Shown here in pieces: positions 3,873-21,570 of a stretch of 64,000 nucleotides of DNA. Numbering within the stretch: position 1 is the stretch's first letter; every line of letters begins with the position of its first letter. The position numbers and the translations under genes were made by a program. Under the pieces are notes generated by a model that saw only the letters and a program-made list of their open reading frames with translations, had not been told where the DNA came from and made no database searches. This DNA comes from Bacillota bacterium. Lineage in GTDB: Bacteria; Bacillota; SHA-98; UBA4971. Where the stretch lies: assembly GCA_012516125.1 (NCBI GenBank), contig JAAYXB010000027.1, forward strand, positions 102,093 through 166,092, written 5' to 3'.

Positions 3873-3892
3873 GTCAGGTCACCTCGCATGAT

Positions 3893-4609
3893 CTACCCAC
3901 GCACCTCGACAACAACGGGGATGTCTCCCGCGAGGCCGTAGAAATCCCGTACGGCGCGCTCCACCCGTGCCGCGAGCACGGTCTCCGCCACGCCCTCCCC
4001 GTCCGGGGCATCCTGGTCTGCGACCATGCCCGCGCCGTTGCCCTGTTCCTGCCCGTGCACCTGTCCCTGTCCCTGTCCCTGTCCCTCTCCCTCTCCCTCT
4101 CCCCCTCCCCCTCCCTTTCCCTGTCTTTGCCTCTGGTCGCTACCGCGTTCGCCTTCGGGGGAACGAGTTTGCCAGCGGGCTGAGGTGACCCGCACGACCA
4201 CGCGGATTCCGGATAGATCCCCCGAAGGCGCCAGGTCCACCCGGGCGTCCACTGCCTCAGCACCCGAGGCGAGGCGAGCGAGGGACTCGACCTGTCTTTC
4301 GAGGCGTGTGCGGACGTCCCGGCTCGCTATCTCCAGCCCGGCCTGGGCTATCCTGTTCCCTTCTGCCGCGTAGTCATGCCGCCCGCCGCCTGCAGCTTCG
4401 GACAGGTCCGGAATCGAAGGCGTTGCGAGAGCCTCCTCCACAGAGGAAAGGTCCACGAGGGACCCCAGGATGATCGCCACCAGCACAAGGCCGATGACGA
4501 CCCTCGCGAACTTGCGGAGATCGTTCCGTGGAAGCAGCATCTCCGCGAACGCGAGGATGAGCGCCATGACCGCGAGATCCCGCACCCACCCGGATATGGC
4601 GTCTATCAT
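3893..4609 (-). CDS. spoIIIAF: stage III sporulation protein AF
   Basis: Two N-terminal TM helices (MIDAISGWVRDLAVMALILAFAEMLLP...) as in SpoIIIAF, operon position. Carries a GEGEGQGQGQ low-complexity insert encoded by a hexanucleotide tract around 4040-4140. Confidence 0.75.
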   Translation of the reverse strand: MIDAISGWVRDLAVMALILAFAEMLLPRNDLRKFARVVIGLVLVAIILGSLVDLSSVEEALATPSIPDLSEAAGGGRHDYAAEGNRIAQAGLEIASRDVRTRLERQVESLARLASGAEAVDARVDLAPSGDLSGIRVVVRVTSARWQTRSPEGERGSDQRQRQGKGGGGGEGEGEGQGQGQGQVHGQEQGNGAGMVADQDAPDGEGVAETVLAARVERAVRDFYGLAGDIPVVVEVRG

Positions 4610-4636
4610 CTCACGCCACCTCTTACGCCGTCTCGC

Positions 4637-5872
4637 CTACCTCATCGCGGCCGTCAAATTGGCAAGGCCGGCCACCACGGTCATGGCCGCGATGAACGCG
4701 AACGCCGACACGGCCAGGGACACAAGGACCATGACGAGCGTGTTGCCAAGGGCCCCGAGGCAGCGCGCCAGCTGCTCGTCGCCCATGGGCTGCACCACAG
4801 CGCCGGCTACTTTGTACATGGCCGCCACGGCGAAGATCTTCGCAGCAGGGACCAGACATATCATGAACACCCCGAGAAGACCGACCACCGTAAGACCGCT
4901 CTGGATGAGCACGGAGCAGCTTGCGACCATGGCGACGGCGTCGGAGAACATCTTCCCGACCACAGGGATGAACGTCCCAGAGACGAACTTCGCCGCCCGG
5001 ATCGACAGGGTGTCGGTAACGGCCGCCCCGACACCCCGCACGGCCATCACACCCACGAACAGCGTCATGAACCCGCCGAGCGCCGCCACTGCCCCATCGC
5101 GCAGGAGGGCCGACAGGCGCGTGAGCTGGACGCGTTCGGTGATCATGCTGGTCACCTCCAGCACCGCCGAGAGGAATATCAGCGGGAACACGAGGTTGTT
5201 CACGAAGCCGCTCGTGGCCCCGGCGGCAGCCACCACCGCGGGGCTCATCACCGCCGCCGACGTAACCCCTCCGGCCGCTGCGAGCAGGGCAAAGAGCAGG
5301 GGCGTTGCGGAGTGGACGAACGAGGTCATCCTGTCAACGGCGGCCGTTGCGGCCCGCGTGGTCACGAGGAAGCTGTTTATAGCCATCACAGCCAGCACCA
5401 TGAAACACGCGGCCCGGGCGATCCCCGTAGCCTGCTCCGCCCCCAGGCCCGACGCAAACTCCGAGAGCACCGAGCACATCACCGCAAGCACTATGAGCTG
5501 CCCGAGAAGGGCGAGGCTTGCCCGCACTTCGGCTGCGACCAGTCTCACGATACCCGCCGCAATCCTCCCGGGCTCGAGCCGATCCGCCGCGCCCCGCGGT
5601 GCCTTCAGCATTGCGGCAAGGTCGAGCTCGGGGAAAAACTCCTTGACGTCCGCGTCCACGTCCCGCAGGAAGCTTTCAAGGGCTGCCGTGTCCATGGCGT
5701 CCATCTGCGCCCTTACGATGTCGTCCGGGGACGCAGGGCGGCCCGGCTGCGAACCCGAGGAGGCGGCAGCGGCTTCCTGCGCCATGGGGGCCTGGGCTGA
5801 TGTGGTCGCTCTCGCTCCGTCGAGCCATGCGGCGACCGCCAGCATCAGGACCATCAGTAGCGCGACGGACAT
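4637..5872 (-). CDS. spoIIIAE: stage III sporulation protein AE
   Basis: Polytopic membrane protein that aligns along its length with B. subtilis SpoIIIAE (PLLFALLAAAGGVTSAAV..., VTDTLSIRAAKFVSGTFIPVVGKMFSDA). Start set at internal ATG 5872 (MSVALLMVLML signal peptide); the ORF-track N-terminal 54 aa is likely artefact. Confidence 0.85.
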   Translation of the reverse strand: MSVALLMVLMLAVAAWLDGARATTSAQAPMAQEAAAASSGSQPGRPASPDDIVRAQMDAMDTAALESFLRDVDADVKEFFPELDLAAMLKAPRGAADRLEPGRIAAGIVRLVAAEVRASLALLGQLIVLAVMCSVLSEFASGLGAEQATGIARAACFMVLAVMAINSFLVTTRAATAAVDRMTSFVHSATPLLFALLAAAGGVTSAAVMSPAVVAAAGATSGFVNNLVFPLIFLSAVLEVTSMITERVQLTRLSALLRDGAVAALGGFMTLFVGVMAVRGVGAAVTDTLSIRAAKFVSGTFIPVVGKMFSDAVAMVASCSVLIQSGLTVVGLLGVFMICLVPAAKIFAVAAMYKVAGAVVQPMGDEQLARCLGALGNTLVMVLVSLAVSAFAFIAAMTVVAGLANLTAAMR

Positions 5873-6168
5873 CCATGTTACCGCGGGCGCGCGGCCCCCG
5901 GGACCGCGGCATGTCCGCGCCGTCCGTCGAGCTTCCAAGCGGGTCAGACGGGCTACTGGGCGGCGATGCAGGTTTTCTGGGGCAAGCTGTTCGCGCATCA
6001 CAGGCATCCTTTCTGAGCCGGCAGGCTGGCTCAAGGCCCCGCTTCTCGGCCACGCTCCTCCAGGGATCCTCTCCCAGCCACGCCTCCTTTAGAGCCCTTC
6101 CAGGGCGGCAGCCCCTTCGCTTGCCTCCTTGGACCCCGCCAGGACGTCCAGGTTTCCGGCTCGCCAAG

Positions 6169-6579
6169 TTACCTCAGAAAACGTGTGATCGTCTCGAGCA
6201 CGGCAACGAGCACCGGGAGCGCCATGACGAGTATCATCACCTTGCCCGCGAACTCGAGCTTAGTCGCTATGGCGCCCTCGCCCGCGTCCCGGCACACCTC
6301 CGCCCCGAACCCGGCGAGGTACGCAACGCCGATCACCTTCAGGACCGCGGTGAAATACACATTGCCCGACCTGGTTCTTGACGCGAGATCGGTGAGGGCG
6401 CGCACGAGATAGCTGATGTGCCCGAGCATGGCCGCGAACACTATCACGCCCGTCACGATGCTGAGCCAGATGGCCATCTCCGGCCGCTGGGACCGGAGGA
6501 GCACCACGAGGACGGTCGCCATCACGCACACAGCAAGCACCTTAGCGATATCCAAGGCCCGCACCCCGCACTGCCGCAT
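6169..6579 (-). CDS. spoIIIAD: stage III sporulation protein AD
   Basis: Small 4-TM protein; C-terminal AVLKVIGVAYLAGFGAEVCRDAGEGAIATKLEFAGKVMILVMALPVL matches the SpoIIIAD signature. Exact start uncertain. Confidence 0.8.
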   Translation of the reverse strand: MRQCGVRALDIAKVLAVCVMATVLVVLLRSQRPEMAIWLSIVTGVIVFAAMLGHISYLVRALTDLASRTRSGNVYFTAVLKVIGVAYLAGFGAEVCRDAGEGAIATKLEFAGKVMILVMALPVLVAVLETITRFLR

Positions 6580-6585
6580 TCCAGG

Positions 6586-6786
6586 CTACCAGAGCCTGAA
6601 CACGGTGAGGATGTCATCCAGAAGCTCCTTGAACTGAAGGAGCGCAACGCCGAACACCAGGGCGGCGCCGATGACCGTGGCGGCCCAGGCGAAGTCCTTC
6701 CTGCCCACCTGCTCGAAGATGAGGGCAACGACGATGGAGATGATGCCTATCCCGGCGACCTTGAAGACGATGTCTATGCCCGGCAT
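6586..6786 (-). CDS. spoIIIAC: stage III sporulation protein AC
   Basis: About 67-aa two-TM protein (MPGIDIVFKVAGIGIISIVVALIFEQVGRKDFAWAATVIGAALVF). Start set at internal ATG 6786. Confidence 0.8.
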   Translation of the reverse strand: MPGIDIVFKVAGIGIISIVVALIFEQVGRKDFAWAATVIGAALVFGVALLQFKELLDDILTVFRLW

Positions 6787-6841
6787 TCCGTCATCTCCCT
6801 TCATCAGCGAGGGCCGGCGCCCGGTCCTGGCAGCCTGCGGC

Positions 6842-7357
6842 TCAGTACAAGAGAAGGGCTACCATAGCGCCCACGGTCACGCCGAGATACCGCCACATCC
6901 TCGCCATGCGCTCCGCCTCATCCCGCGCTCTGACCTCGTTTGCGCGAAGTCGCTCGCGCGCGAGGGCCAGGTGTCGGAGCTGGTCCTCGGCGCCGCACGC
7001 CCCGAGGGTCTCTCCGAACGCGAGCAGCGCGTCGCGGTCCTCGGGCGCGAGGGCCGACCACGCGTAGACGCGGTGCACCGCCGTCTGCCAGGCTTCGCTG
7101 GGCAGAGGTTCGGAAGACCTGATGAGATCCGCCGCAAGACGGAATATCCGCGTTCCTACGCCACGGCGAGTGCCGTATGCGCGCACCAGGGCATCAGCCA
7201 GCGGCGTCCTCGCGTAGGAAATCTCCGTCTCCAGCACGGCAAGGGCCGACGCTATCTCGGCAAGTTGGCGGGGGCGCTCGGAATAGTTCCTTGCCACTGT
7301 GTTTCCGATGAGGGTGGCGGACCCCACAACAAGGGCCGCGCCGAGGAGCTTCACCAC
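6842..7357 (-). CDS. spoIIIAB: stage III sporulation protein AB
   Basis: VKLLGAALVVGSATLIGNTVARNYSERPRQLAEI... aligns with the B. subtilis SpoIIIAB N-terminus (MLKLLGAVFIVV...YTERPRQIRQL). GTG start at 7357 with GGAGG 8 nt upstream. The ORF-track upstream extension (Gly/Ala-rich) is likely non-coding. Confidence 0.8.
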   Translation of the reverse strand: MVKLLGAALVVGSATLIGNTVARNYSERPRQLAEIASALAVLETEISYARTPLADALVRAYGTRRGVGTRIFRLAADLIRSSEPLPSEAWQTAVHRVYAWSALAPEDRDALLAFGETLGACGAEDQLRHLALARERLRANEVRARDEAERMARMWRYLGVTVGAMVALLLY

Positions 7358-7620
7358 AGGACTCGCCTCCTCACGGCGCTCCACCGGGCCCGGAGTCTCA
7401 GCTGCACCCCCAACCCCAGCTCTGACCGCAGGTCCACGTCCGCTACGACATTCAGCTCTGCCTTCAGCACCAGCACCAGCACCAGCTTCGGCTCTGGCTC
7501 CTGCTCTGGCTCCGGTTCCAGCCGTTCCCAGGCGTGTAACCAGCGGTTGTAGCCGGACCACGCTAGGCAGAGGGTCGCAGGTCTGGCCCGGGGTTGGGCG
7601 TTGCCGCGACTATCCCGATC

Positions 7621-8631
7621 CTACCGGGAAGAGCGGGCAACCAGGGTCTTCCCACTCCGTAGGTCGAGAACGGTCTCGAGCGTGCCCGGGCCATGGGCGG
7701 AGCTCAGGGTCACCACTCTCTCGAACATCTGCGCCTCGAATAGGCACCTGAGCGCGGGGCGCCTCGCGACGTCTTCCAGCGCCTCCCCGTGGGCCGTCGC
7801 CACGATGCTCACCCCGGCGTTCATGGCCTCTCGGACAGCCACCGCGTCCTCCTCCCTGCCGATCTCATCTGTAACCACGAGATCCGGCGACATGGATCTC
7901 ACGAGCATGATCAGGCCTGCGGCCTTGGGGCAGGCGTCAAGGACGTCGGTTCGCAGGCCCACGGTGTTCTGAGGGACCCCGCCGTAGCAGGCCGCTATCT
8001 CTGAGCGCTCGTCGACGATTCCAACGCGTAGGCCCGCAAGGCCAAGCGACGGGATCCCCTCGCTTGCCTGTCGGGCTATGTCGCGTAAGAGCGTTGTCTT
8101 GCCGCAGCGCGGGGGTGAGACGATGAGCGTGTGGAAGAGACGGTTGCGGGACTTGATAAGGTATGGCATGACCAGGTCAGCCGCGCCCAGCACTTCACGG
8201 GATATCCTGATGCAGAAACCTGAGACGTCCTTGATGACTTTGACGATGCCGTCGTGTACCACAGCTCGCCCCACGATTCCCACCCTGTGGCCGCCCCGCA
8301 GCGTAACGTAGCCCTGGCGGATCTCGTCCTCGTAGGAGTAAACAGACGAGCCCACCATGAGCTGAAGCGCGACGAGCGTCTCCTGGTCGCTGAGGATGTA
8401 GCCTTCGTCCGGCCCGGGTGCGACCCCGCCCCGGGACGAAACGAACACCTCGTCGTCCCCGGCAACCAGCATCACCGGGCGGCCCCGGCGCAGGCGGATC
8501 TCGTGGGTACTCGCAAGCAGCTCCGCCGGCAGCATCTGGATTGCCGATCGCAGCTTGGCGGGAAGGCAGGGCAGGATCTCGTCCACGATCACCTCGTTGA
8601 TCGGCCTTCCGCGTCGTCCTTCCGAGAGCAA
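7621..8631 (-). CDS. spoIIIAA: stage III sporulation protein AA (AAA+ ATPase)
   Basis: Walker A (SPPRCGKTTLLRDIAR) and extensive similarity to SpoIIIAA (GYVTLRGGHRVGIVGR, IVDERSEIAACYGGVPQN, DVLDACPKAAGLIMLVRSMSP). First gene of the operon. Confidence 0.9.
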   Translation of the reverse strand: MLSEGRRGRPINEVIVDEILPCLPAKLRSAIQMLPAELLASTHEIRLRRGRPVMLVAGDDEVFVSSRGGVAPGPDEGYILSDQETLVALQLMVGSSVYSYEDEIRQGYVTLRGGHRVGIVGRAVVHDGIVKVIKDVSGFCIRISREVLGAADLVMPYLIKSRNRLFHTLIVSPPRCGKTTLLRDIARQASEGIPSLGLAGLRVGIVDERSEIAACYGGVPQNTVGLRTDVLDACPKAAGLIMLVRSMSPDLVVTDEIGREEDAVAVREAMNAGVSIVATAHGEALEDVARRPALRCLFEAQMFERVVTLSSAHGPGTLETVLDLRSGKTLVARSSR

Positions 8632-10670: not shown

Positions 10671-12095
10671 TCACCCGCCGTTTTCCTTCTCAGTTCGTGC
10701 TACGGCGTCATCCACGGTCACTATGCGCGGCGTGATGAATATGACCATCTCAGTTTCCTTGGCCTGGACCTTCTTGTTCTTGAAAAGCTCACCTAGGATG
10801 GGGATGTCGCCGAGGATCGGGAACTTCAGCATGCTCTCGATCTCCTCACGCTGAAGCAGCCCCGCGATGGCAAGGGTCTCGCCGTCCCGTACCGTTGCCA
10901 CGAAATCGGCTTCCCTCGTTCTCACGTGCGGGTAACCCTGGGTCTGCTCCTTGCCGAGGATGGACGACACCTCCGGACGGACGTGCACCGTTATGAGGCC
11001 GTTACGGTTGACGCGCGGCGTGATGATGAGCTTTACTCCGGCCTCAATGAAGGACACGCTTTGGCTCGTCTCGCCGCCGCTGGAGCTTGTGATTATGACC
11101 GGGATCTTGTCGCCGATGAATATCCGCGCCTCCGTGCCGTCTAGTGTGGTGGTGCCGGGACGGGCAATGGTGACAGCCTTGCCCGAATCCTCAAGCATCT
11201 TGAGAAAAGGCCCTACAGCGAGCGAAAGCCCAATGAATGCGCCGGTGGTGGGGTCCGTTCTTATATAGACCTTTCCGAACCCGCCGTACTCCCCCGCTTC
11301 CTGCCAGTTTATCCCGTGCTCGTCCAGGGCATCCTTGGCGATTTCCTCAAGGCGAGCGTCGATCCGCACCATGGGGATGGGCACGTCCAGCTTCTCCACG
11401 ACCTTAGCAGCTTCATCGAGTTCCATTTGGGCACCCGAGGCTATGACCGAATTCGTGCGCTCGTCTACCTGGAGTCTGTCGGCGGGGATCACGAGGCTGA
11501 GAGCCTGCTTGATGTCGGCCGGCGAGGAGTAGCTCAGCTTGAACACCCTGGTCTCGACCTTGTCGAAGCCCTCTTTGAAACGTCCGGGGGCGGCAACCAC
11601 GAGGGTGTTGCCGACGTACCTGTAGGCGAGGCCGGTTGCGCGCGTGACAAGCTCTACCGCGTCGGTCACAGGGACGGCCTTCAGGGTTAGCGAGACCTCG
11701 CCCCTCACGGACGGGTCGGCGATGATGTTCACGCCTCCGAGCTCCGCAAGGATCTTGAGGACGTCGCGGATGTCGGCGCCTTTCAGGTCGATCGTGACAG
11801 GGTGTCCCACAGCTCGGGCGGTGCCTGCTATGGCACTCCCTGCAGGTGTCGTCTGTCCCTGTCCCTGTCCCTGTGTCTGTGTCTGCGTCTGCGTCTGTGC
11901 CTGTACCTGTGGCTGTGGCTGTGCCTGTGCTTCTCCCTGTGCACCTGGAGTTGCCTCTGCCTGAGCAGGGCCTTGCTGCTCCGGCTGAACCTGGGCCTGC
12001 GCCTGCGGCTGCTGTGGCGCCGCCAGGCACGCCAGCGTCACTACGAGCACAATCATGAAGGCGACCCGCCTGGTCAGGCGCGGACCGCTTGTCAT
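10671..12095 (-). CDS. pilQ: type IV pilus secretin PilQ family protein
   Basis: Signal peptide, Gln/Thr/Pro-rich low-complexity linker and N-domains. C-terminal secretin domain (GETLAIAGLLQREEIESMLKFPILGDIPILGELFKNKKVQAKETEMVIFITPRIV). Confidence 0.8.
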   Translation of the reverse strand: MTSGPRLTRRVAFMIVLVVTLACLAAPQQPQAQAQVQPEQQGPAQAEATPGAQGEAQAQPQPQVQAQTQTQTQTQGQGQGQTTPAGSAIAGTARAVGHPVTIDLKGADIRDVLKILAELGGVNIIADPSVRGEVSLTLKAVPVTDAVELVTRATGLAYRYVGNTLVVAAPGRFKEGFDKVETRVFKLSYSSPADIKQALSLVIPADRLQVDERTNSVIASGAQMELDEAAKVVEKLDVPIPMVRIDARLEEIAKDALDEHGINWQEAGEYGGFGKVYIRTDPTTGAFIGLSLAVGPFLKMLEDSGKAVTIARPGTTTLDGTEARIFIGDKIPVIITSSSGGETSQSVSFIEAGVKLIITPRVNRNGLITVHVRPEVSSILGKEQTQGYPHVRTREADFVATVRDGETLAIAGLLQREEIESMLKFPILGDIPILGELFKNKKVQAKETEMVIFITPRIVTVDDAVARTEKENGG

Positions 12096-13264
12096 GGTTT
12101 ACCGCCTCCCCCGAGTTCCAGCACGAACTCCTCGCCTTCCTTGATCACGGTGATGGACTTCTCCCCGATGGACTTCACCGTCACGCCTCCGACCTCGTCT
12201 CCGGGCCGCACGATGCTGCTGCCCTGGGGCGTCTTCACTATCGCGTACGCCGAGTCACCGGTGCTGATGATGCCGGTCACAAGCATGAGCGGGGGGTCCA
12301 CGCGCGGCCTCGGCGGGGCAACAGATTCCGGCGGCACGCTCTCGCGGCCGCTCTCTTTGACGGTCAGTGTTCCCTTGCTGGTAGTAGGTGCTCCTGCGGC
12401 TGTGGGGCCGCCGCCCTTGTCCGCCGTTGACGGTGGCTTGGCGGTCCCGGGCTTCCCCGCATCGTTTCCGGCGGACGGCTTCCCCGAGAGAGCCTGGGAC
12501 GGTTCCGACGCCTGGACGGCTTCACCGGCACGTGTGTCTCCCGCGCGCGGGGCGGACTCGCCCGTTGCGGTCTTGCCGGGCTTGTCCACCGGCTCGGTTG
12601 TTCCGGTCTTTCCCACCGGCTCGGCGGCTGCCACACTGCCTTTCTCGCCAGCCTGCGCCTCTTCAGGCGCAGGCTGAGGCGTCGGCGTGGGTGTGGGCGG
12701 CAACTGTGCTACCGTCACAGGCTCCGGGGGCTTCGGCACAGGCGGAGAGGAGGGTTTTGCGTCTTCCTTCGGCTCGGCCGGAGGCTTCTCCTCGGGCACG
12801 CTCGGTTTCGTCGCGGCCTTTGAAGCGTTCTTTGCTGAGGCCGTAGCGATGATCCTCCTGACCTCGTCCGGTCCCGTGTCAGGCTCCGCGCTCATGGGGC
12901 CAGGGCGCCGCCCTTGCGTGCGGTAATACCGTACAATAGAACTGTCCGGGGCAAATGGGTCCTCATCGGACCTTGCAGGAAACGAAATGGCCTCCTCCTC
13001 CTTACCCGCCTGGGTGACGGGGGGAAGCGGCTTCTGAAGCTCGCGCCACTTCTCGGGGATGGCGGGCCGGGTGACAGCCGTCGAGGGCGCCTCCGGCAAG
13101 CTCCTGTCCGCAGGCGGGCGCACAGCCCTCATGCCCACGACGACCGCGGCGGCCATCACAGCAAGAGCGAAGACAGCCACGAACCAGGCCACGGGTTTAA
13201 GTGGCGACTTCGTGCCACCTTGTCTGAGATCCACACGTGTCTTGCCGCCGAAGAGAGGTCTCAT
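12092..13264 (-). CDS. PilP-like pilus assembly protein (proline-rich, N-terminal TM)
   Basis: N-terminal TM anchor and a long Pro/Ala/Lys-rich linker. C-terminal beta domain (LMLVTGIISTGDSAYAIVKTPQGSSIVRPGDEVGGVTVKSIGEKSITVIKEGEEFVL) resembles PilP. Position between pilO and the secretin. Confidence 0.45.
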   Translation of the reverse strand: MRPLFGGKTRVDLRQGGTKSPLKPVAWFVAVFALAVMAAAVVVGMRAVRPPADRSLPEAPSTAVTRPAIPEKWRELQKPLPPVTQAGKEEEAISFPARSDEDPFAPDSSIVRYYRTQGRRPGPMSAEPDTGPDEVRRIIATASAKNASKAATKPSVPEEKPPAEPKEDAKPSSPPVPKPPEPVTVAQLPPTPTPTPQPAPEEAQAGEKGSVAAAEPVGKTGTTEPVDKPGKTATGESAPRAGDTRAGEAVQASEPSQALSGKPSAGNDAGKPGTAKPPSTADKGGGPTAAGAPTTSKGTLTVKESGRESVPPESVAPPRPRVDPPLMLVTGIISTGDSAYAIVKTPQGSSIVRPGDEVGGVTVKSIGEKSITVIKEGEEFVLELGGGGKP

Positions 13265-13833
13265 CTGCCACCCCCACCCTTTGGCACCACGTATAGGACC
13301 ATCGAGAGCGTCGCATCCAGCGTTTGCGCCCTTCCCGCATCGCTCGTCCCCCGTGGGGCAGTGAGGCGGACGCCTCTCACGCTCATCGCTCGCCCGAGGG
13401 AAAGAAGCTTGTCAAGGAATGTCTTCACCTGTTGATAAGAGCCCTGGACCTCTATCGTGAAGGGAACCTCAGCATAGGGACTGGAGGAGGACAGGGATCC
13501 GAGGGAAAGGGACACCACAGCCACTCCGGAAGCGGATGAGACGCGGTCCAGATCCCTCAGGAAGTAGGGTATGCCTGTTTCCCTTGTTACCATAGAATCG
13601 ATCGCCTGGAGGGCCTTCAAGGCCTCTTCATACTCCACCCGCAGGCTCGCGAGGGTCTCGCCCTTCTCGGCGATCGACCCGATCCTGCGGCTTATGAGGT
13701 CAAGACGTTGGGAAAGGTCCGCGGCCTCGCGCGATATGGGCGAAAGGACGTACGCATAGAACACATAGCCCGCAAGAGCCAGGCCCACGGTCAGGACGAG
13801 GATGTATCTCGGCATCTGGCTTCGGCTGCTCAC
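13261..13833 (-). CDS. pilO: type IV pilus assembly protein PilO
   Basis: N-terminal TM, coiled-coil, then a PilO-like fold. Operon position after pilN. Confidence 0.6.
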   Translation of the reverse strand: MSSRSQMPRYILVLTVGLALAGYVFYAYVLSPISREAADLSQRLDLISRRIGSIAEKGETLASLRVEYEEALKALQAIDSMVTRETGIPYFLRDLDRVSSASGVAVVSLSLGSLSSSSPYAEVPFTIEVQGSYQQVKTFLDKLLSLGRAMSVRGVRLTAPRGTSDAGRAQTLDATLSMVLYVVPKGGGGR

Positions 13834-14384
13834 GGCTTCTCGCCTCCTGTGCGAGAGAGCGTCGCCTGCGCCTGAAAGGCGAGCAGCCCTTCATTCTCGC
13901 CGGCCCTGCCAGTGCGAGCCAGGCGGACGTCGTCGAAAAGATCCGAATCCTCAAGGGCTAGCATGAGTGAGGCCACGGCCTCGAGCGACGCCGCCTCTCC
14001 GTCTATCATCGCCTTGCCGTCGTCTGCAAGGGTGAACTGCACCAGGCGCACGCCCCTGGGAAGGAGACGCGAAAGGTCGCCTAGGATCTCCTGCGCCGGG
14101 AGACCGCCCTCAACCTGTTGCGTGGCTGCGGCTAGCCTTGCCAGCACTTCGTCCTTGCTCTTGCGGGTCTCCTGGATATCGTGGTCGAGCCAGGCATAGC
14201 GGGCGTAGTCCTCCTCTTGCGCCTTCAGAGAGCGGCGCAGGTCTGCGACCTCCTGCGCCTTCACCACGTAGAGAAGGACGGCCACGAGCACGAAAGCGCA
14301 CACCGACGCTGCCGCCACTATCCGCAGGGCGCTCGTCCTGGGCGGCTTCGGTAGCCCTGGCGGCAGCAGGTCAACGCCTTTCAA
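13830..14384 (-). CDS. pilN: type IV pilus assembly protein PilN
   Basis: Single TM plus coiled-coil plus periplasmic domain (LKGVDLLPPGLPKPPRTSALRIVAAASVCAFVLVAVLLYV...). Start assigned to a TTG at 14384 that overlaps the pilM TGA stop, with GGTGGAGGA upstream. The ORF-track N-terminal 83 aa is likely artefact. Confidence 0.6.
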   Translation of the reverse strand: MKGVDLLPPGLPKPPRTSALRIVAAASVCAFVLVAVLLYVVKAQEVADLRRSLKAQEEDYARYAWLDHDIQETRKSKDEVLARLAAATQQVEGGLPAQEILGDLSRLLPRGVRLVQFTLADDGKAMIDGEAASLEAVASLMLALEDSDLFDDVRLARTGRAGENEGLLAFQAQATLSRTGGEKP

Positions 14385-15553
14385 GAGTCCTCCACCCCCC
14401 GCAGCGCAAGCCCGATTGCAACCGAAAGCGACGGCCCGTGCGCAGCGAGCACGTCGGCGAGGCGATCCGTCTTCGCCGGGGATGCGTTCTTCAGCGGGTT
14501 CCCGGGGCTCACCGCCACGCCGAGGCTGCTCTCGAGGAACTCGGCCAGCCCTGCGAGCCTCGACCCGCCGCCGGTGAGTATGACCGAGGCGATGGGCGCG
14601 TCCGCGCCGCGCCTTGTCCTCGCCTGGGCGTTGCAATAGTCGATAGACCGCCTCAGCTCTACGGCAAGCCTCGCTGCAACGCTGGCGAGCGCCTGCTCGA
14701 CAGCGCCATCCTCAGAAGCGGCGTCGTCCACCAAGGCGCCACCGGCTACCGCCGTAGAGGACGGCACCGGCACACGACACCTGCGCTTGGCTGTCTCCGC
14801 CCAACCCGCGCCGCGGCCCGTAGCCTCGGCCACGGCGGCTGTGAAGTCGTTCCCACCTATGGGAACGATCCGCGTGAACCGAAGCACGCCGCCCTCGGAG
14901 TAGGCGAGGTCGGTGGTCCCTCCTCCGATGTCCGCACAAAAGGCCGAGGACTCGGCGTTGCCGTCGCGGAATACGCGGTCCAGCGTGATAGGCTGGATGT
15001 CGAGGGCCAGCGGGTACAGCCCCGCAAGCTGCATGGTCTCGACATGGCTCTGCACGAGCTTCTTCGGGGCGGCCACGATCATGACCTCGATCTTGTCGGG
15101 TGAGCCCGCCGGGGAGCCGACGATTTGGAAGTCTATGCTCGCGTCTTTCGCAGGGTAGGGGATGTACGCCCCCGCGTCCCACTTCACCGCCTGGGCAAGT
15201 TCCTCCCTTGGCATGCGGGGGAAAAGCGCATGCCTCACCACGACATCGTCGCCTGCGATGGCAGCGTATACCTCGTTGGATCGGATGCCACCCGCGCGCA
15301 TGGCCTCCTTCACGGCGGCGGCGACCTTCGGAGGGTCGAGGACGCTCCCCTCGGCGACCGCGCCTTCGGGCGTGGGATGTACCCCGGCGCGAGTTATCTC
15401 GACCGCGCTCTTTGTTTTCGTGATCTCGACCACCTTGATGAGGGTGGTCCCGATGTCAAGCCCCACGGCGCGCTTCGCGCCGCCGAACGGAAGAAGCGGG
15501 CTCAGACGACCGCCTCCTTTCGAAGCATGAACCCTAATACTGGGCCGCCACAC
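14381..15553 (-). CDS. pilM: type IV pilus assembly ATPase-fold protein PilM
   Basis: Actin-like PilM (VGLDIGTTLIKVVEITKTKSAVEITRAGVHPTPEGAVAEGSVLDPPKVAAAVKEAM). Start uncertain by about 20 codons. Confidence 0.8.
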   Translation of the reverse strand: MWRPSIRVHASKGGGRLSPLLPFGGAKRAVGLDIGTTLIKVVEITKTKSAVEITRAGVHPTPEGAVAEGSVLDPPKVAAAVKEAMRAGGIRSNEVYAAIAGDDVVVRHALFPRMPREELAQAVKWDAGAYIPYPAKDASIDFQIVGSPAGSPDKIEVMIVAAPKKLVQSHVETMQLAGLYPLALDIQPITLDRVFRDGNAESSAFCADIGGGTTDLAYSEGGVLRFTRIVPIGGNDFTAAVAEATGRGAGWAETAKRRCRVPVPSSTAVAGGALVDDAASEDGAVEQALASVAARLAVELRRSIDYCNAQARTRRGADAPIASVILTGGGSRLAGLAEFLESSLGVAVSPGNPLKNASPAKTDRLADVLAAHGPSLSVAIGLALRGVEDS

Positions 15554-15790
15554 CTGAAACCATTCTCAAAAGTCGGGAGCGTCTTCGTACGGGACTGTTG
15601 AACTCCGCCAGCAGCTACCCGTTTAGCCCGGCACGGCGACGGTTTTGGGCGATTCGGCCCGGTCATCGTGACACGATGTGGGAACCATCAACAGTCTCTT
15701 ACTCCCGTACTTACTGCTGTGCTACACAGGCAAAGGAACCTGGAAGACGTCACCAAACCGGGAAATCGGCGCAGACTGGTGCTCCCACGC

Positions 15791-16612
15791 TTAGAACCCC
15801 GCCTGGCCAAGCCACGGGAACACGAGACGCAGTACCCAGGTCCCCGAGATACACACGATGATCGCTCCCGCCGCAATGAAAGGCCCGAACGGGATCTCGT
15901 CCTTCCTCTTCTTAAGGCCTGCGACGATCAGCCCGATCCCGACCGCCGCGCCGATGAAGCACGCGACCATGAACGACGCAAGCCCGCCCCACGGCCCGAG
16001 AAAGCTCCCCACGAGCGCCATCAGCTTGACATCTCCGCCGCCCATGCCCCCGCGGCTCAAGAGGGCGATGAGGAACACAAGCCCTCCGCAGGCAAAAAGT
16101 CCAACGATGCGCATCGTAACCTCGCGGAGGCCCCCGAGCGCCCCTGCCGCCACGCCCACCGCCATCCAGGGAAGCGTAAGCCTGTCGGGGATCACCCCAT
16201 GATTGAGATCGATCCCCGCCGCAACCACGACCAGGCTCGCCAGCACCAGGTAGTTCAGGGTCCAGACAGTGGCTCCGCGGCCTACCACGATCAAGAGAAA
16301 AATGAGCCCAACGCCGACCTCCATGGCAGGGTAAGAGATGGATATCTTCTTTCCACAGTGGCGACACCTGCCCCGGAGGAGCAGGTAACTCAGCACGGGC
16401 ACGAGCTCGAGCGGCCCGAGCGTGGTCCCGCATTCCGGACAGTGGGATCGCGGCGACACGACCGACTTCCCACGTGGGAGACGGCGAACACACACGGTGA
16501 GGAAGCTTGCCACGATTGTTCCCGCAAGAAACACTAGCAATGTTCCGATGGGCGACGTACCTCCATACGACAAAGGAACAGGGATTTCCCATTGCGCATG
16601 AGATGCTGCCAA
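15791..16612 (-). CDS. pilD: prepilin peptidase (A24 family)
   Basis: N-terminal CPECG...CRHCG zinc-finger motif followed by a polytopic peptidase domain (GGGDVKLMALVGSFLG). Track start is a TTG; true start uncertain. Confidence 0.85.
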   Translation of the reverse strand: MAASHAQWEIPVPLSYGGTSPIGTLLVFLAGTIVASFLTVCVRRLPRGKSVVSPRSHCPECGTTLGPLELVPVLSYLLLRGRCRHCGKKISISYPAMEVGVGLIFLLIVVGRGATVWTLNYLVLASLVVVAAGIDLNHGVIPDRLTLPWMAVGVAAGALGGLREVTMRIVGLFACGGLVFLIALLSRGGMGGGDVKLMALVGSFLGPWGGLASFMVACFIGAAVGIGLIVAGLKKRKDEIPFGPFIAAGAIIVCISGTWVLRLVFPWLGQAGF

Positions 16613-16936
16613 AGCACCCTGGACTCCAGGCTCCTGCGGTCAGGTGATCTCTTCGCTACAAAGCCAGAACGAGTTTGACGTTCAGCGTGATACCTTATGA
16701 CAAGGCGACAGAGCATCCCCAGGCCGCAGGAGCGAGCAGAGTCAGGATAGGCGCGTAAAACTCGACGACTGAAAGCTACCTCTTCCCAAGCCTCTCAGAC
16801 AATAGCCACTCGAGTTGTCAGGACAGATGCTACGGACGTGACGCGTTTGCCAATCCGGCACATCATGCGTCCGCGAATGATTCCCGCAACGCACGCACAT
16901 CCCTGTAGGCTACGACTCCGGCTGTTTCGGCTCTCG

Positions 16937-17329
16937 CTACTCACCAGCACCACAGGATGCACAATGCACGCCGGTCACGTTGCCCTCGTCGTCCTCGTCA
17001 AAGACGTAAGCGGTTGCGCCCTCGTCGCCCGTCACGGGGCACTTAGGCAGTTCTCCTGTTTCCAGATAACCCGCTAGCTGCTCAACGCTGTCCGGGTCTT
17101 TGCCGTTGTCAACTCGGTACAAATCGATCAGCCGCTCCAGTGTCTGCACGTTTGCCTCACATGCTTTCTTCTTTGCTGCTTGAGTGACTTTCGAGAAACT
17201 TGGTACCGCGATTGCAGCTAGGATTCCGATAATGGCAATGACTATAAGCATCTCTATCAGGGTGAAGCCTCGCCTATCGCAAACTACCCGATGGACAGCC
17301 TTTCTCACACGCATGCCTAATTCCCTCAC
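16937..17329 (-). CDS. type IV pilin (prepilin with class III signal)
   Basis: Leader ...CDRRG followed by FTLIEMLIVIAIIGILAAIAVP, the N-methylation site and hydrophobic helix. GTG start at 17329 with GAAAGGAGG 9 nt upstream. Cys-containing C-terminus. Confidence 0.8.
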   Translation of the reverse strand: MRELGMRVRKAVHRVVCDRRGFTLIEMLIVIAIIGILAAIAVPSFSKVTQAAKKKACEANVQTLERLIDLYRVDNGKDPDSVEQLAGYLETGELPKCPVTGDEGATAYVFDEDDEGNVTGVHCASCGAGE

Positions 17330-17439
17330 TGCAAATGGCCTCCTTTCTGTACTTCACACTGCGTTCCATAGGAATTGTCCCAACCTTCCGGTATCGCCCC
17401 CCTTGCGAGACTACAACATGTGACGCTATGTGACGCTCG

Positions 17440-18663
17440 CTATACGGCCTGCACCATCCTGAACATCGGCAGTATCACCGACGCCGCCACGAGGGCCACG
17501 CACAGGCCCAGGAACACGATGACGACGGGCTCTATCAGGCTCGTTAGCGACTTTATGCCCCGGTCGACTTCCTGCTCGTAAAACCCCGCCAGCTTCGTAA
17601 GCAAGCTGTCCAGGGCGCCGCCTTCCTCGCCGACTGCCATCATCTGCGTGACGACCGGTGGGAAGATCCCTGCCTGCGCCAGCGGAAGAGCGATGCCCGC
17701 GCCCTCCCTCACGCCGGACCGCACCTGCCGGAGGCCCATGGCGATGTGGCTGTTGCCAACGACTCTCTCGACGACCTCAAGGCTCTGGAGGATCGGGACG
17801 CCCGCGGCCACAAGGCTTGCTAGTGTCTGGGCGAACCGCACCACGATGACCTTCTCCATGAACCTCCCGATCACAGGAAGCTTCAGCACAGTCGAGTCAT
17901 ACCAGTAGCGGCCGCGATCCGTCCTGAGCCAGTATCCAACAGCCACCGCTGCGAGCGTCGGCACGCTGAGCACGACATACCACCTGGTCTGGACGAACTT
18001 CCCCACGCCGAACACGATCTGCGTGATCCTCGGCAGAGGGACATCAGACTGCGCGAGTACCTCGACGAACCTCGGGATCACGAACGTCATCAGGATGCCC
18101 ACCACTATCACGGCGAAGCCCGCGACGACCGCCGGGTAGGTGAGCGCGCCCTTGACCCTCTGGCGGAGGTCGTGGTCCTTCTCGTAGTAGTCCGCGAGCC
18201 GCGCGAGCACCTCGTCGAGCCGCCCGGTCACCTCCCCTGCCTCCACCATGTGGATGAAGAGCGGCGGGAACGCGCCTGTCTCGGCAAGCGCGCCCACGAG
18301 CGGGTTCCCGGCGTCCACGCGCGCCTTCGCCGCCTCGAGCACGCGCCTCTCCAGCTTGTTTTCGGCCTGACCTGCGAGCGTGTGCAGGGCGGCCGAAAGC
18401 CCCACCCCCGCCTGCATCATCACGGAAAGGTGCCGCGAGAGCCTCGCGAGGCTCTGGACCTTCAGTCTGCCGCGGACGGCTGGCCGCACCGCAGCTGGCG
18501 TGCTGCCCTCGGCCTCGCCCTTCTCTCCACCGAAAAGCCCCGTCACGAAGAGGCCCTGCGCTCGCAACAGCTCGGCCGCGGCGGCCTCATCGGCCGCCCT
18601 GATGGTGCCCTGTGTCAGACGCCCTTCAGCGTCGCGCGCCCGGTATGTGAATACCCGCTCCAC
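17440..18663 (-). CDS. pilC: type IV pilus platform protein PilC (GspF family)
   Basis: Two tandem T2SSF domains, three TM segments, about 400 aa. Confidence 0.85.
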   Translation of the reverse strand: MERVFTYRARDAEGRLTQGTIRAADEAAAAELLRAQGLFVTGLFGGEKGEAEGSTPAAVRPAVRGRLKVQSLARLSRHLSVMMQAGVGLSAALHTLAGQAENKLERRVLEAAKARVDAGNPLVGALAETGAFPPLFIHMVEAGEVTGRLDEVLARLADYYEKDHDLRQRVKGALTYPAVVAGFAVIVVGILMTFVIPRFVEVLAQSDVPLPRITQIVFGVGKFVQTRWYVVLSVPTLAAVAVGYWLRTDRGRYWYDSTVLKLPVIGRFMEKVIVVRFAQTLASLVAAGVPILQSLEVVERVVGNSHIAMGLRQVRSGVREGAGIALPLAQAGIFPPVVTQMMAVGEEGGALDSLLTKLAGFYEQEVDRGIKSLTSLIEPVVIVFLGLCVALVAASVILPMFRMVQAV

Positions 18664-18679
18664 TCCCGCGACCTCCTAC

Positions 18680-19741
18680 CTACGCGCCCCTGATGAGCCG
18701 CTTGAGCTCGTCCTGGTCCACCGCTATCGTGAGGGCGTCCTCCAGGCTCACCACGCCCTGTTCCACCCACTGCCGCAGGGACTGGTCCATGGTCTGCATT
18801 CCGAACCTCGCCCCGGTCTGGATCACCGACCGGAGCTGGTGGGTCTTGCCCTCACGGATGAGGTTTCGCACCGCTGGCGTCCCAACCATGACCTCCACGG
18901 CCGGCACCCGCCCGGGCTTGTCCTTCCTCGGGACGAGCTGCTGCGAGATCACCGCCACCAGCGTGGCGGCGAGCTGGATCCTCACCTGCTGCTGCTGATA
19001 AGGCGGGTAGACGTCGATTATCCGATCGATGGTCTGCACCGCGTCGCCCGTGTGCAGCGTGGCGAGCACCAGGTGCCCCGTTTCTGCGGCCGTGATCGCC
19101 GTGCTCATGGTCTCGAGGTCGCGCATCTCACCCACGAGGATCACGTCGGGGTCTTCCCGCAGTGCCGCCCGGAGCGCCAGGGCGAACGAGGCGGAGTCCT
19201 GCCCGATCTCGCGCTGGTTCACCATGGCCTTCTTATGTCGGTGCAGGTACTCGATGGGGTCCTCGATGGTCATCACGTGGCAGCTTCGCTCGCTGTTGAT
19301 GAGGTCCACCATCGCCGCAAGCGTGGTAGACTTGCCGCTGCCCGTCGGCCCTGTCACGACGATAAACCCGCGGCTCTTGCGGGCAAGAGTCTCGATGATG
19401 GGCGGAAGGCCAAGCTCCGCTACGGTCGGTATCTCGTGCGGGATGACCCTTATGGCTGCCCCACACGTCCCACGCTGCCGGTATGCGTTCACCCTGAAGC
19501 GCCCCACTCCAGGCAGGCCGTATGAAAAGTCCACCTGGCCCTGCTCCGCGAAAACCCGCCTGTGCTCGTCGTTCATGAGAGCCAGCACGAGCCCTTCGGT
19601 GTCCTGCGGCGAAAGAGGCGTAAACCCCTCGACAGGACGCAGGCTTCCGACCACCCTCAGGACGGGTGGAAGGCCGGTCGTGATATGTAGGTCGGATGCG
19701 CCATTCCCGACAGCTACCTTCAGCAATTCCTCTATTGACAA
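18680..19741 (-). CDS. pilT: type IV pilus retraction ATPase PilT
   Basis: MSIEELLKVAVGNGASDLHITTGLPPVLRV... plus Walker A (GPTGSGKSTTLAAM) and Asp/His boxes. Start set at TTG 19741 with AAGGAGGG 9 nt upstream, overlapping the pilB 3' end by about 10 nt. Confidence 0.85.
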   Translation of the reverse strand: MSIEELLKVAVGNGASDLHITTGLPPVLRVVGSLRPVEGFTPLSPQDTEGLVLALMNDEHRRVFAEQGQVDFSYGLPGVGRFRVNAYRQRGTCGAAIRVIPHEIPTVAELGLPPIIETLARKSRGFIVVTGPTGSGKSTTLAAMVDLINSERSCHVMTIEDPIEYLHRHKKAMVNQREIGQDSASFALALRAALREDPDVILVGEMRDLETMSTAITAAETGHLVLATLHTGDAVQTIDRIIDVYPPYQQQQVRIQLAATLVAVISQQLVPRKDKPGRVPAVEVMVGTPAVRNLIREGKTHQLRSVIQTGARFGMQTMDQSLRQWVEQGVVSLEDALTIAVDQDELKRLIRGA

Positions 19742-21570
19742 GATCGAGCGCCCTCCTTGCCATCCGGCACCGCGCACACCTTTGCAAGTTCCTCGGGCGT
19801 CGTGATCCCCAGAAGCACTTTGCGCGCGCCGTCAACCACGAGCCTGGTCATGCCCGCCTTCACCGCCGCATCCTCGATCTGCTCGGCGGGCGCGGACTTC
19901 ATGACCAACCCCCGGATGTAGTCGTCGACCACCATCACCTCGGCGATCGCCGTGCGCCCGTAACATCCCGTATTCGCGCACTGCCTGCAGCCACGGCCGC
20001 GCCTCAGCACCCTCCCCCGCTCCGCCTCCACCCGGGGCGCCGTGTCAGGCGCGAGCGCGCTCCACGCCGCCCATGTGGTCGGGTCCGCCTCGTACTCCTC
20101 GGCGCAGTATGGGCACACCTTCCGCACCAGCCTCTGCGCCACCACCGCTGTCACAGACGAGGCCACGAGATACGGCTCCACGCCCATCTCCATGAGCCGC
20201 ACGAGCGCCCCCGCCGCGTCGATGGTATGGAACGTGCTCAGCACGAGGTGCCCGGTCATCGCGAACCTTATGGCGATCTCAGCAGTCTCGCGATCCCTTA
20301 TTTCGCCCACCATGACGATGTCAGGGTCCTGCCTCAGGATGGCCCGCAGCCCCGCCGAAAACGTAAGGCCCGCCCTGGGATTCGTCTGTACCTGGTTGAG
20401 GCCAGACACGCGGAACTCCACAGGGTCTTCGATGGTGACAATGTTCTTCTCGGGGCTGTTGAGCTCGTGGAGAGCCGCATAAAGCGTCATGGTCTTCCCG
20501 CTTCCCGTCGGGCCTGTCACGAGCATGATCCCGTTGGGCCGCGCGAGCACCTGGCGGAGGCGCGCCGCATCCGCCTCCAGGAACCCAAGCTCGTCGATAC
20601 GGGTAATGGCCCCCTTTGATCGCAGGATCCTGATCTCGACCTTCTCGCCGTAGAGCGTCGGAAGCGTGGATACGCGAAGGTCGACCTCCTCGCCCTCCGC
20701 TCGTATCTCGACCCGCCCGTCCTGCGGCACCCGCCTCTCGGCGATGTCCATGCCCGCCGTGACTTTGATGCGCGAGGCCACCGCAGGGCCGAGCTCTTTC
20801 GGGAAGGTCATAACCTGCCTCAGGATGCCGTCGACCCTGTATCTCACCCGCACCTGCGACTCCTGCGGCTCGATGTGGATGTCGCTCGCGCGCGCCTTCA
20901 CAGCCTCGGAAATGATGGCGTTCGCGAGCCGCACCGCCGGGGCGCTCATCACTTGCGCGTCGTCGGCGGCCTTTCTCGCCTCGTCAGCCCTGGCCTGCTG
21001 CGCCTTTCCGGCCGCCCCCGCGACTTGGGCCTGGACCTCCTTGACAAGCTTCACGGCGGGGCCGGCGCCGTAGCACTCGGCTATCGCAGCCTCGATCTCA
21101 GCCTCGCTGGCAATGACGGGATCGACCTCGAGGCCCGTGGAGATTCTCACGTCATCGATGGCGAAAACGTCAAGGGGGTCCGCCATGGCGAGGGTGATGC
21201 GGTCGCCGACTCGCTCGATGGGGAATACCTTGTGGGACCTCACGAACGCCTCGGGGAGAAGATGCGCCACTTCCGGATTGATGATGTACCTGGCGAGCTC
21301 GACCCGGGGAATTCCAAGCTGGGTTTCGAGGGCCGTGAGCATGGTGTCCTCATCGATGAAGCCGAGGGAGACCAACACCGAACCCAGCCTTCCGCCTCTC
21401 TCCTTCTGGACGGCAAGCGCCTTATCGAGGTCTTCGTGTGTGAGGACCCCCGCGTCAATGAGGATCTCGCCAAGTTTACGCCTGCGCGCAACAGGCGCCA
21501 CCTGCGTGCCGGGCGCAGCGGCCTCGGTCACTGGTGCACGCCCCGCACCGGCTCCCCCTGCCGTGCTCAT
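19732..21570 (-). CDS. pilB: type IV pilus assembly ATPase PilB (GspE family)
   Basis: N-terminal GSPII_E N-domain, Walker A (GPTGSGKTMTLYAAL) and a C-terminal tetracysteine motif (CPYC...CRQC). Confidence 0.85.
   Translation of the reverse strand: MSTAGGAGAGRAPVTEAAAPGTQVAPVARRRKLGEILIDAGVLTHEDLDKALAVQKERGGRLGSVLVSLGFIDEDTMLTALETQLGIPRVELARYIINPEVAHLLPEAFVRSHKVFPIERVGDRITLAMADPLDVFAIDDVRISTGLEVDPVIASEAEIEAAIAECYGAGPAVKLVKEVQAQVAGAAGKAQQARADEARKAADDAQVMSAPAVRLANAIISEAVKARASDIHIEPQESQVRVRYRVDGILRQVMTFPKELGPAVASRIKVTAGMDIAERRVPQDGRVEIRAEGEEVDLRVSTLPTLYGEKVEIRILRSKGAITRIDELGFLEADAARLRQVLARPNGIMLVTGPTGSGKTMTLYAALHELNSPEKNIVTIEDPVEFRVSGLNQVQTNPRAGLTFSAGLRAILRQDPDIVMVGEIRDRETAEIAIRFAMTGHLVLSTFHTIDAAGALVRLMEMGVEPYLVASSVTAVVAQRLVRKVCPYCAEEYEADPTTWAAWSALAPDTAPRVEAERGRVLRRGRGCRQCANTGCYGRTAIAEVMVVDDYIRGLVMKSAPAEQIEDAAVKAGMTRLVVDGARKVLLGITTPEELAKVCAVPDGKEGARSCQ

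Follow-up and report, generated by a model that had tools for sequence, protein, structure and literature searches.

A type IVa pilus operon with a secretin and a predicted PilP/GspC-type partner in a spore-forming bacterium, probably a diderm member of the Limnochordia

The stretch of DNA analysed here, 64 kb of contig JAAYXB010000027.1 from a Bacillota bacterium (referred to as the window), contains ten consecutive minus-strand genes that fill positions 10671-21570: pilB, pilT, pilC, a pilin gene, pilD, pilM, pilN, pilO, an open reading frame (ORF) of 390 amino acids (aa) and pilQ. We hold with high confidence that they form the chromosomal type IVa pilus (T4aP) operon of an uncultured, thermophilic, spore-forming member of the Limnochordia with a diderm envelope. 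A contiguous order from pilB to pilQ on one strand had been proposed from the letters of the DNA and a list of its ORFs (the sequence-only reading), and it was borne out when gene families were assigned with Pfam and NCBIfam profiles, the NCBIfam scores being judged against the curated cut-offs (Table 1).

The two gene overlaps described in the sequence-only reading were both found in the DNA. The pilM stop and the TTG start of pilN overlap in cTTGA (14384-14381), and the pilT TTG start at 19741, which has aaggaggg upstream, gives a 10-nt overlap with the pilB stop (19732-19734). According to the coordinates, there is also a 4-nt overlap at each of the pilN/pilO, pilO/390-aa ORF and 390-aa ORF/pilQ junctions. 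Starts and stops thus overlap from pilM to pilQ, and therefore these genes look translationally coupled. For pilD, one of two public gene calls gives a protein of 249 aa, which corresponds to the start at 16540. Scans of the pil operon for terminators and promoters returned counts that were not above those of shuffled controls.

Table 1. Coordinates of the pil genes and of the sporulation genes in the window, with the profile matches (E-values) or other basis for each assignment.
Feature	Coordinates	Strand	Basis and remarks
pilB, extension ATPase	19732-21570	-	T2SSE 6.6e-134; N-terminal MshEN 1.8e-21
pilT, retraction ATPase, 353 aa, TTG start	18680-19741	-	TIGR01420
pilC, inner-membrane platform protein	17440-18663	-	T2SSF 8.4e-60, in two stretches
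single prepilin (major pilin), ComGC/GspG-like	16937-17329	-	N_methyl 1.5e-10
pilD, prepilin peptidase/N-methyltransferase	15791-16540	-	A24_N_bact 2.6e-32; Peptidase_A24 2.1e-17
pilM, actin-like cytoplasmic assembly protein	14381-15553	-	PilM_2 1.6e-43; probable start 15466
pilN, 184 aa, TTG start	13830-14384	-	PF05137 PilN 2.3e-10
pilO	13261-13833	-	PF04350 PilO 5e-14; T2SSM matches weaker
PilP/GspC-type linker protein (putative), 390 aa	12092-13264	-	predicted fold; no Pfam match
pilQ, secretin	10671-12095	-	Secretin 2e-44; Secretin_N 1.2e-13; STN 9.7e-10; N0 1.9e-6
spoIIIAA-AH	2520-8631		Pfam matches to SpoIIIAA, AB, AC/AD, AE, AF and AH
yqfD	56577-57797		Pfam match
yqfC	57828-58121		YabP family, Pfam

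Because the models for PilB, PilC, the pilin and PilQ were matched under their curated cut-offs, the locus was assigned to the T4aP family by its gene content, namely PilT, PilM-PilN-PilO and a PilP-type protein. PilT matched TIGR01420 (PilT/PilU) with 499 bits against a cut-off of 319.1 (residues 15-357), its translation contains the AVRNLIREGK motif, and it is identical to the NCBI protein NLG79045.1. The presence of PilT claimed in the sequence-only reading was thereby confirmed, and because PilT is genuine, retraction of the pili is a fair inference from the gene, which the twitching proposed in that reading may accompany. PilM scored 207.6 bits against TIGR01175 (cut-off 133), and the genes of the PilM-PilN-PilO assembly complex are all present by Pfam. 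PilB, PilC and PilD have T2SSE, T2SSF and A24 domains (E-values from 1e-17 to 1e-134); their matches to the NCBIfam equivalog models are full length and lie under the cut-offs. At the N terminus of PilB, the cyclic di-GMP (c-di-GMP) motif model NF053729 matched residues 32-84 (1e-18), and the translation contains both 24-residue [RK]LGxxL(I/V)xxG(V/F)(L/I)xxxxLxxALxxQ motifs as well as a CPYC...CRQC tetracysteine. The two MshEN motifs, KLGEILIDAGVLTHEDLDKALAVQ and RLGSVLVSLGFIDEDTMLTALETQ, are intact, and we infer solely from them that PilB is probably controlled by c-di-GMP.

The prepilin is encoded from a GTG at 17329, with a GGAGG site 9 nt upstream, and it carries a class III signal, read in the sequence as RRG/FTLIEM (the slash marks the cleavage site) and matched by N_methyl. 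The leader before G/FTLIE is basic and unusually long (16-23 aa). All pilins of this group of metagenome-assembled genomes (MAGs; L007-L024) share two features: a conserved basic leader of ~20-25 aa with the pattern R-x-V-R-R-V/I-L-x-D/N-x-R-G, which precedes the FTL(I/V)E site, and a CP...C/H motif in the C-terminal part. One genome of the group (L013) carries two tandem pilin genes. The pilin is the most diverged gene of the operon, with a nonsynonymous distance (dN) of 0.43 relative to L007, whose PilB has a dN of 0.017. Exposed major pilins usually diverge in this way.

The product of the last gene is a genuine secretin with a signal peptide, N0 and N1 domains and a secretin domain. The secretin C-domain noticed in the sequence-only reading passed the secretin profile search (Table 1), and the motif PILGDIPILGELF / FPILGDIPILGELF is present in the translation. 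The best matches among the sequences of solved structures in the PDB were Pseudomonas aeruginosa PilQ (6ve2, 4e-42), then the T4aP PilQ proteins of Myxococcus xanthus and Neisseria, and then GspD. An AlphaFold model built from 30 homologues consists of a signal helix (residues 5-24), a disordered Gln/Pro-rich spacer (~29-94), the N0 (99-168) and N1 (181-236) domains, the secretin sheet (242-459) and a short C-terminal helix. When this model was compared with known structures by Foldseek, 50/50 of the matches listed were secretins or secretin N-terminal domains, and the top match was the competence-pilus PilQ of Vibrio cholerae (6w6m, 1.7e-20). No AMIN domain was found in PilQ by Pfam, and because this domain is absent and the score against TIGR02515 is under the cut-off, the protein is best described as a short PilQ-type secretin and not as a textbook PilQ.

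The 390-aa protein encoded between pilO and pilQ had no match in Pfam, and its NCBIfam match to GspC_delta (residues 262-386) was weak. Its 16 homologues all come from one group of MAGs. An alignment of 15 homologues showed a transmembrane (TM) helix (~24-47), a conserved juxtamembrane stretch ending in DPFAPD, a variable Pro/Ala/Glu-rich spacer (approximately residues 120-320) that differs in length and sequence even among close relatives, and a near-invariant C-terminal block of ~65 residues. A profile of this block gave no significant match to PDB sequences. The AlphaFold program predicted the C-terminal domain (~325-386) as a six-strand β domain with a predicted local distance difference test (pLDDT) score of >90, and its top 11 Foldseek matches were PilP (P. 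aeruginosa, N. meningitidis and M. xanthus), the homology region (HR) of GspC/PulC, and GspB, with a Foldseek probability of 0.97-1.00. The domain-sized alignments had a root-mean-square deviation of 2.5-3.1 Å over 63-67 columns and 26-30% identity to P. aeruginosa PilP, and the target-normalised TM-scores (TMt) were 0.79 for 3oss_C and 0.74 for 6hcg_e. A small domain in a mostly disordered query explains the weak Foldseek E-values (5e-3 and worse); the argument lies in the uniform list of matches.

The sequence-only reading had labelled this gene PilP-like, in agreement with the confidently predicted domain and its best structural matches. By its predicted fold, the 390-aa protein is the PilP/GspC equivalent of the locus, anchored by a TM helix like GspC and not by a lipid like PilP. 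The HR domain of PilP/GspC binds the N0 domain of the secretin (PMC6916266), and by analogy the HR domain of the 390-aa protein would dock on the N0 domain of PilQ. As a separate observation, both envelope-spanning partners contain a low-complexity spacer, which is Gln/Pro-rich in PilQ (~65 residues) and Pro/Ala/Glu-rich in the PilP-like protein.

A GspC-like partner of a secretin raises the alternative of a type II secretion system (T2SS), in which folded proteins are driven through the secretin by a pseudopilus. The GspE, GspF and GspG models match PilB, PilC and the pilin with scores that are nearly as high or higher, PilO also matches GspM models, and the PilP-like protein is bitopic like GspC and superposes best on a GspC HR domain (TMt 0.79). 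However, a bona fide PilT lies inside the operon, PilM and PilN are separate proteins in place of a single GspL, the minor pseudopilins GspH-K are absent from the window, the best matches of PilQ are PilQ models and PilQ structures, and no PDZ or coiled-coil domain follows the HR domain of the PilP-like protein. We therefore regard a T2SS as very improbable.

A second alternative concerns the output of the machine and is compatible with its being a T4aP: the pilus could serve mainly in DNA uptake (competence), a retractile ComGC-like fibre pulling DNA through PilQ, as is known for PilQ in Vibrio, Neisseria and Thermus. The pilin has ComGC as its best NCBIfam match and a precomputed ComGC_C domain, PilQ also matches models of the DNA uptake porin HofQ and has the V. 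cholerae competence secretin 6w6m as its top structural match, PilT is present, and a ComFB gene lies within the corresponding locus of Anoxybacter fermentans, a member of the Halanaerobiales. Nevertheless, the ComGC and HofQ matches are far under the curated cut-offs, PilQ is closest in sequence, among solved structures, to the T4aP proteins of P. aeruginosa and M. xanthus, the window has no comEA, comEC, dprA or comF gene, and a hypervariable pilin is more typical of an exposed adhesive fibre. DNA uptake as the main function is thus possible but doubtful.

The T4aP operon is conserved among the closest genomes to the window, which are uncultured Bacillota MAGs. Among species-representative genomes, 12 MAGs have a PilQ with 75-91% identity, and the order coaBC-pilBTC-pilin-pilD-pilMNO-PilP-like-pilQ-M24 peptidase-efp-spoIIIA is kept in 12/12 of these species at guanine plus cytosine (GC) contents of 49-66%. 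The same operon order was found in a more distant MAG with 55% PilQ identity. The ratio of nonsynonymous to synonymous substitution rates (dN/dS), computed against four relatives, was 0.07-0.16 for PilQ. The other core pil genes gave 0.05-0.26, a range close to that of the nearby M24 peptidase and SpoIIIAA genes. Values of 0.30-0.58 for the PilP-like protein reflect its variable spacer, and the values for the pilin were mostly saturated. The best cultured relative of PilQ, with 40% identity, is that of A. fermentans (CP016379; L023), where the order is pilB, pilC, pilin, pilD, four small ORFs, comFB, pilM, two ORFs, PilO, a 229-aa ORF, PilQ, aroQ, M24 peptidase, an OEP/MacB cluster and efp. 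The 229-aa ORF encodes a TM helix and an RDPF motif, and its C terminus is homologous to the HR domain of the PilP-like protein (hhalign 91%, E = 1e-6). Because this ORF is homologous and the gene order is the same, we consider that the module of PilP-like protein and PilQ occupies the same chromosomal position in the diderm Halanaerobiales.

These data also bear on two other readings of the secretin module, as a recent horizontal acquisition from a Gram-negative phylum or as a relic in decay. Once the Firmicutes MAGs are set aside, PilQ next matches Omnitrophota and Deltaproteobacteria (~30% identity), and two bins that carry the locus are labelled Bacteroidota and Betaproteobacteria. Against this, the GC content of the pil genes, overall and at third codon positions (GC3), matches that of neighbouring genes, the position is identical in the 12 species and in Anoxybacter, and the dN/dS of PilQ is low. 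The oddly labelled bins themselves carry YqfD, SpoIIIA and the same synteny, which points to errors of binning or naming. We consider recent acquisition or decay extremely unlikely. The bins in question belong to PRJNA950955 and are labelled 'Betaproteobacteria bacterium' or 'Bacteroidota bacterium' (L010; P0003, P0124 and P0167); the region they carry is this Firmicutes pil-spoIIIA-yqfD region, and because of that content we take them to be mis-binned contigs or mis-named MAGs.

The exact PilQ was found on JGI and Logan metagenome contigs, of which contig Ga0214976 comes from a study of a thermophilic acetate-fed biogas reactor (PMC7024554). The window proteins EF-P, FloA and DnaJ are identical to NLG79036.1, NLG79084.1 and NLG79090.1, respectively, which like NLG79045.1 belong to a 'Firmicutes bacterium' MAG and lie on a 193-kb contig. 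In the related genome UBA6811, PilQ is 91% identical over the aligned core, PilM 86% and SpoIIIAA 79%. In UBA5449 (13094-18458), efp and spoIIIAA are separated by a 5.6-kb insertion that the window does not have; its genes encode an SBF-family transporter, DUF2703, DsbD_TM, a thioredoxin, an ArsP-type permease and an ArsR-family regulator, with no envelope genes among them.

The Limnochordia are a diderm, spore-forming class and one of the three diderm lineages of the Bacillota. The genomes UBA6811, UBA5449 and UBA4981 (L011, L014 and L016), whose PilQ proteins are 77-91% identical to that of the window and lie in the same synteny, are classed as 'Bacteria; Firmicutes; Limnochordia' in the supplementary table of Witwinowski et al. 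(bioRxiv 10.1101/2021.05.31.446380). According to the passage of PMC11456536 that reports Taib et al. 2020, an outer-membrane gene cluster is present in 46/46 UBA Limnochordia, most of them from digesters. The same paper describes two newly cultured Limnochordia genera as diderm by electron microscopy, L. pilosa having previously been the sole cultured option for verifying the diderm wall of this class (PMC11456536). As regards the secretin, PilQ occurs in the type IV pilus (T4P) loci of all Negativicutes and Halanaerobiales analysed and was not found in those of related monoderms (Antunes et al. 2016, PMC5007114), three T4aP with secretins were counted in Firmicutes having an outer membrane (Denise et al. 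2019, PMC6668835), and monoderm T4P have neither PilP nor a secretin (Pelicic 2019, PMC6916266).

Within the window, the core sporulation gene set is present by Pfam (SpoIIIA proteins, YqfD and YabP/YqfC; Table 1), and the co-occurrence of spoIIIAA-AH, yqfC and yqfD with the pil locus noted in the sequence-only reading was therefore correct. That reading had named the Limnochordia among the candidates for a diderm sporulating lineage, and this is upheld by the published class of the relatives, the outer-membrane reports, the tests of the secretin, its PilP-type partner, purifying selection and the synteny with Anoxybacter. The link of this organism to an outer membrane is supported by analogy with its relatives and by the literature. 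Since the Limnochordia are already known to be two-membraned, a secretin together with sporulation genes is expected and not paradoxical; earlier publications had already settled what looked like a paradox (Antunes 2016; Taib 2020 as cited by others).

Several results weigh against this reading of the locus as a T4aP operon in a diderm organism. PilB scored 595 bits with TIGR02538, its best match, yet the cut-off is 675.65; PilC matched the GspF/PilC NCBIfam models over its full length under their cut-offs; the pilin scored 61.6 bits with ComGC and 57.5 bits with GspG, both under the cut-off; and PilQ scored 215 bits with TIGR02515, the best-scoring subfamily, for which the cut-off is 284.35. 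In six frames of the 64-kb window there is one sole prepilin motif and hence no sign of minor pilins of the FimU/PilVWX or PilHIJK type, which may be encoded elsewhere in the genome, and no pilotin or accessory outer-membrane protein (PilF/Tgl/PilW, TsaP) was found among the annotated window genes. Pilotins and accessory outer-membrane proteins are not universal in the T4aP family. The description of the locus as complete in the sequence-only reading was accurate for the ten core genes but slightly generous overall, because there is a single prepilin signal in 64 kb and no pilotin. With respect to the envelope, no Bam, Lpx, Lpt, OmpM or TolC genes were found in the window, and a look-up outward from its first and last genes gave only dnaK-dnaJ on one side and nothing on the other. 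The nearest relatives of YqfD come from MAGs or distant clostridial taxa (36-42% identity) with no Limnochordia-named match among them, and the nearest named ones (37-39% identity) are from monoderm clostridial lineages. Lastly, the table of Witwinowski et al. gives OmpM, OmpA, Pal and Lpp as 'NA' for UBA6811, UBA5449, UBA4981 and most UBA Limnochordia, with SLH and CsaB only, whereas L. pilosa and UBA5435 do have OmpM. Either the bins of these relatives are incomplete, or their OmpM is divergent, or another tether takes its place.

The envelope results lead to the alternative, also raised in the sequence-only reading, that the organism is monoderm and that the secretin is used in an S-layer or a thick wall or else in the forespore envelope, where it might act together with the SpoIIIA channel encoded nearby. 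Nothing was found in favour of such a use beyond the proximity to spoIIIA, the pil operon being ~2 kb upstream of spoIIIAA in all relatives, and this proximity is itself shared Firmicutes gene order. For a monoderm envelope as such, one can adduce the absence of outer-membrane biogenesis genes from the window, the OmpM entries of the related UBA genomes, and the fact that many deep-branching Bacillota are Gram-negative by stain yet monoderm (PMC11448272). However, the translational coupling of pilQ appears to be with pilMNO and the PilP-like gene and not with spoIIIA, from which pilQ is separated by the M24 peptidase gene and efp. Anoxybacter has the same pilQ-M24 arrangement with OEP/MacB genes, not spoIIIA, between M24 and efp, and the Halanaerobiales species analysed in PMC7924749 do not sporulate. 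Moreover, relatives of the window have been placed in the Limnochordia, for which the outer-membrane gene cluster and electron microscopy have been published, and a secretin is known in no monoderm T4P (PMC6916266). A monoderm or forespore role for the secretin accordingly seems highly unlikely, and a diderm member of the Limnochordia remains the preferred host of this operon.

If the absence of a tether in the relatives is real, the envelope would be atypical, and the Gln/Pro-rich (~65 residues) and Pro/Ala/Glu-rich (~200 residues) spacers of PilQ and the PilP-like protein may have evolved to suit it; it is even conceivable that the trans-envelope T4P complex helps to hold the outer layer to the cell. 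This is a speculation to which we assign little probability.

The gene content suggests the following model for the T4aP. PilD would cleave and methylate the single ComGC/GspG-like prepilin. PilB, probably activated by c-di-GMP through its MshEN domain, would then polymerise the pilin on the PilC platform, and PilT would depolymerise the fibre. PilM, PilN and PilO would form the inner-membrane assembly complex. The bitopic 390-aa protein would associate with PilN/PilO through its N-terminal region, while its C-terminal HR domain would reach across the periplasm and dock on the N0 domain of PilQ, and PilQ would provide the gated pore in the outer membrane by which the fibre leaves the cell.

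Outside the pil genes, the window contains housekeeping genes in a Bacillus-like order and the sporulation genes, nearly every gene being on the minus strand, with a GC content of 62-67% across the whole window. Three minus-strand ORFs had no Pfam match: one at the spoIIIAG position (3210-3872), one of 272 aa (45404-46222) with an N terminus that is signal-peptide-like by eye, and one of 226 aa adjoining floA (58455-59135). An intergenic repeat of ~195 nt occurs at 44055-44249, 44641-44832 and 52318-52511, with a short form at 45297-45379. At its ends it has inverted repeats of 12-15 nt, AAGTGAGGGTGCA...TGCACCCTCACTT. Identity between two copies is 88-95%, and the copy at 52.3 kb shares these ends and has an interior that looks reverse-complemented. 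The repeat folds very stably (-106.8 kcal/mol, z = -6.05) and, with the threshold relaxed to E <= 1, still matched no Rfam family; it is either similar to a miniature inverted-repeat transposable element or a structured RNA of an undescribed kind. Neither Rfam nor tRNA matches were obtained when the window as a whole was scanned.

Diderm Firmicutes with a secretin-containing T4aP operon were already known, and nothing here overturns current knowledge or would surprise a specialist. The additions of this analysis are modest: the unannotated gene between pilO and pilQ, read from its predicted fold as encoding a TM-anchored protein of the PilP/GspC-HR type that is shared with the Halanaerobiales; the conserved pilin leader of ~20 aa; and the pilQ-M24 peptidase-efp synteny across two diderm Firmicutes lineages. 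The conserved and selected secretin with its putative PilP partner is a clean marker of a diderm-type envelope, combined with an endospore programme, in an abundant uncultured lineage of biogas reactors. According to a published view, PilP and PilQ belonged to the ancestral T4P locus of the Firmicutes and were the only two genes lost by monoderms; the synteny with the Halanaerobiales supports it. In addition, a retractile pilus that is probably controlled by c-di-GMP would be a candidate for the aggregation or biofilm behaviour reported for Limnochordia in methanogenic reactors.

Among known systems, the operon resembles the T4P loci of diderm Firmicutes (Negativicutes and Halanaerobiales; PMC5007114, PMC6668835) in being a Firmicutes-type pil operon that ends in a secretin. 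With Anoxybacter it shares the succession of PilO, a bitopic protein with a TM helix, an (R)DPF motif and an HR domain, and PilQ, followed by the M24 peptidase and efp, as well as a PilQ of N0-N1-secretin architecture without AMIN and a short ComGC-like pilin. It differs from Anoxybacter in that it has none of the four small ORFs (probably minor pilins) and comFB that follow pilD there, has a pilT that is absent from the part of the Anoxybacter locus examined, has a pilin leader of ~20 aa compared to ~10 aa, and has a PilP-like spacer that is ~200 residues longer.

In comparison with monoderm Firmicutes T4P (Streptococcus sanguinis and clostridia; PMC6916266), the window has the same single locus with pilB, pilT, pilC, pilD, pilM, pilN and pilO in a Firmicutes neighbourhood, but PilP and the secretin, which those systems lack, are both represented here, conserved and under selection. 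It differs from the monoderm ComG competence pilus in having PilT, PilMNO and PilQ and in that the ComGA, ComGB and ComGC models were matched under their cut-offs. The T2SS pair GspC-GspD (PDB 3oss, 6hcg) offers the highest TMt found here and is similar in having a bitopic inner-membrane protein whose HR fold binds the secretin N0, whereas the window lacks PDZ, coiled-coil and GspH-K, contains PilT and encodes PilM and PilN separately.

The T4aP of P. aeruginosa and M. xanthus (PDB 3jc8, 6ve2, 2lc4) share with the window the ten core functions, the pilMNOPQ order, the PilP HR fold, the secretin fold and the MshEN-type N terminus of PilB. In those species PilP is a lipoprotein, whereas the protein of the window has a predicted N-terminal TM helix, and PilQ is 714-901 aa long compared to 474 aa without AMIN in the window. 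Unlike the classical T4aP, the window has no PilF/Tgl pilotin, TsaP or minor-pilin operon nearby, and the machine that is distributed over several loci in Pseudomonas is encoded here in one operon.

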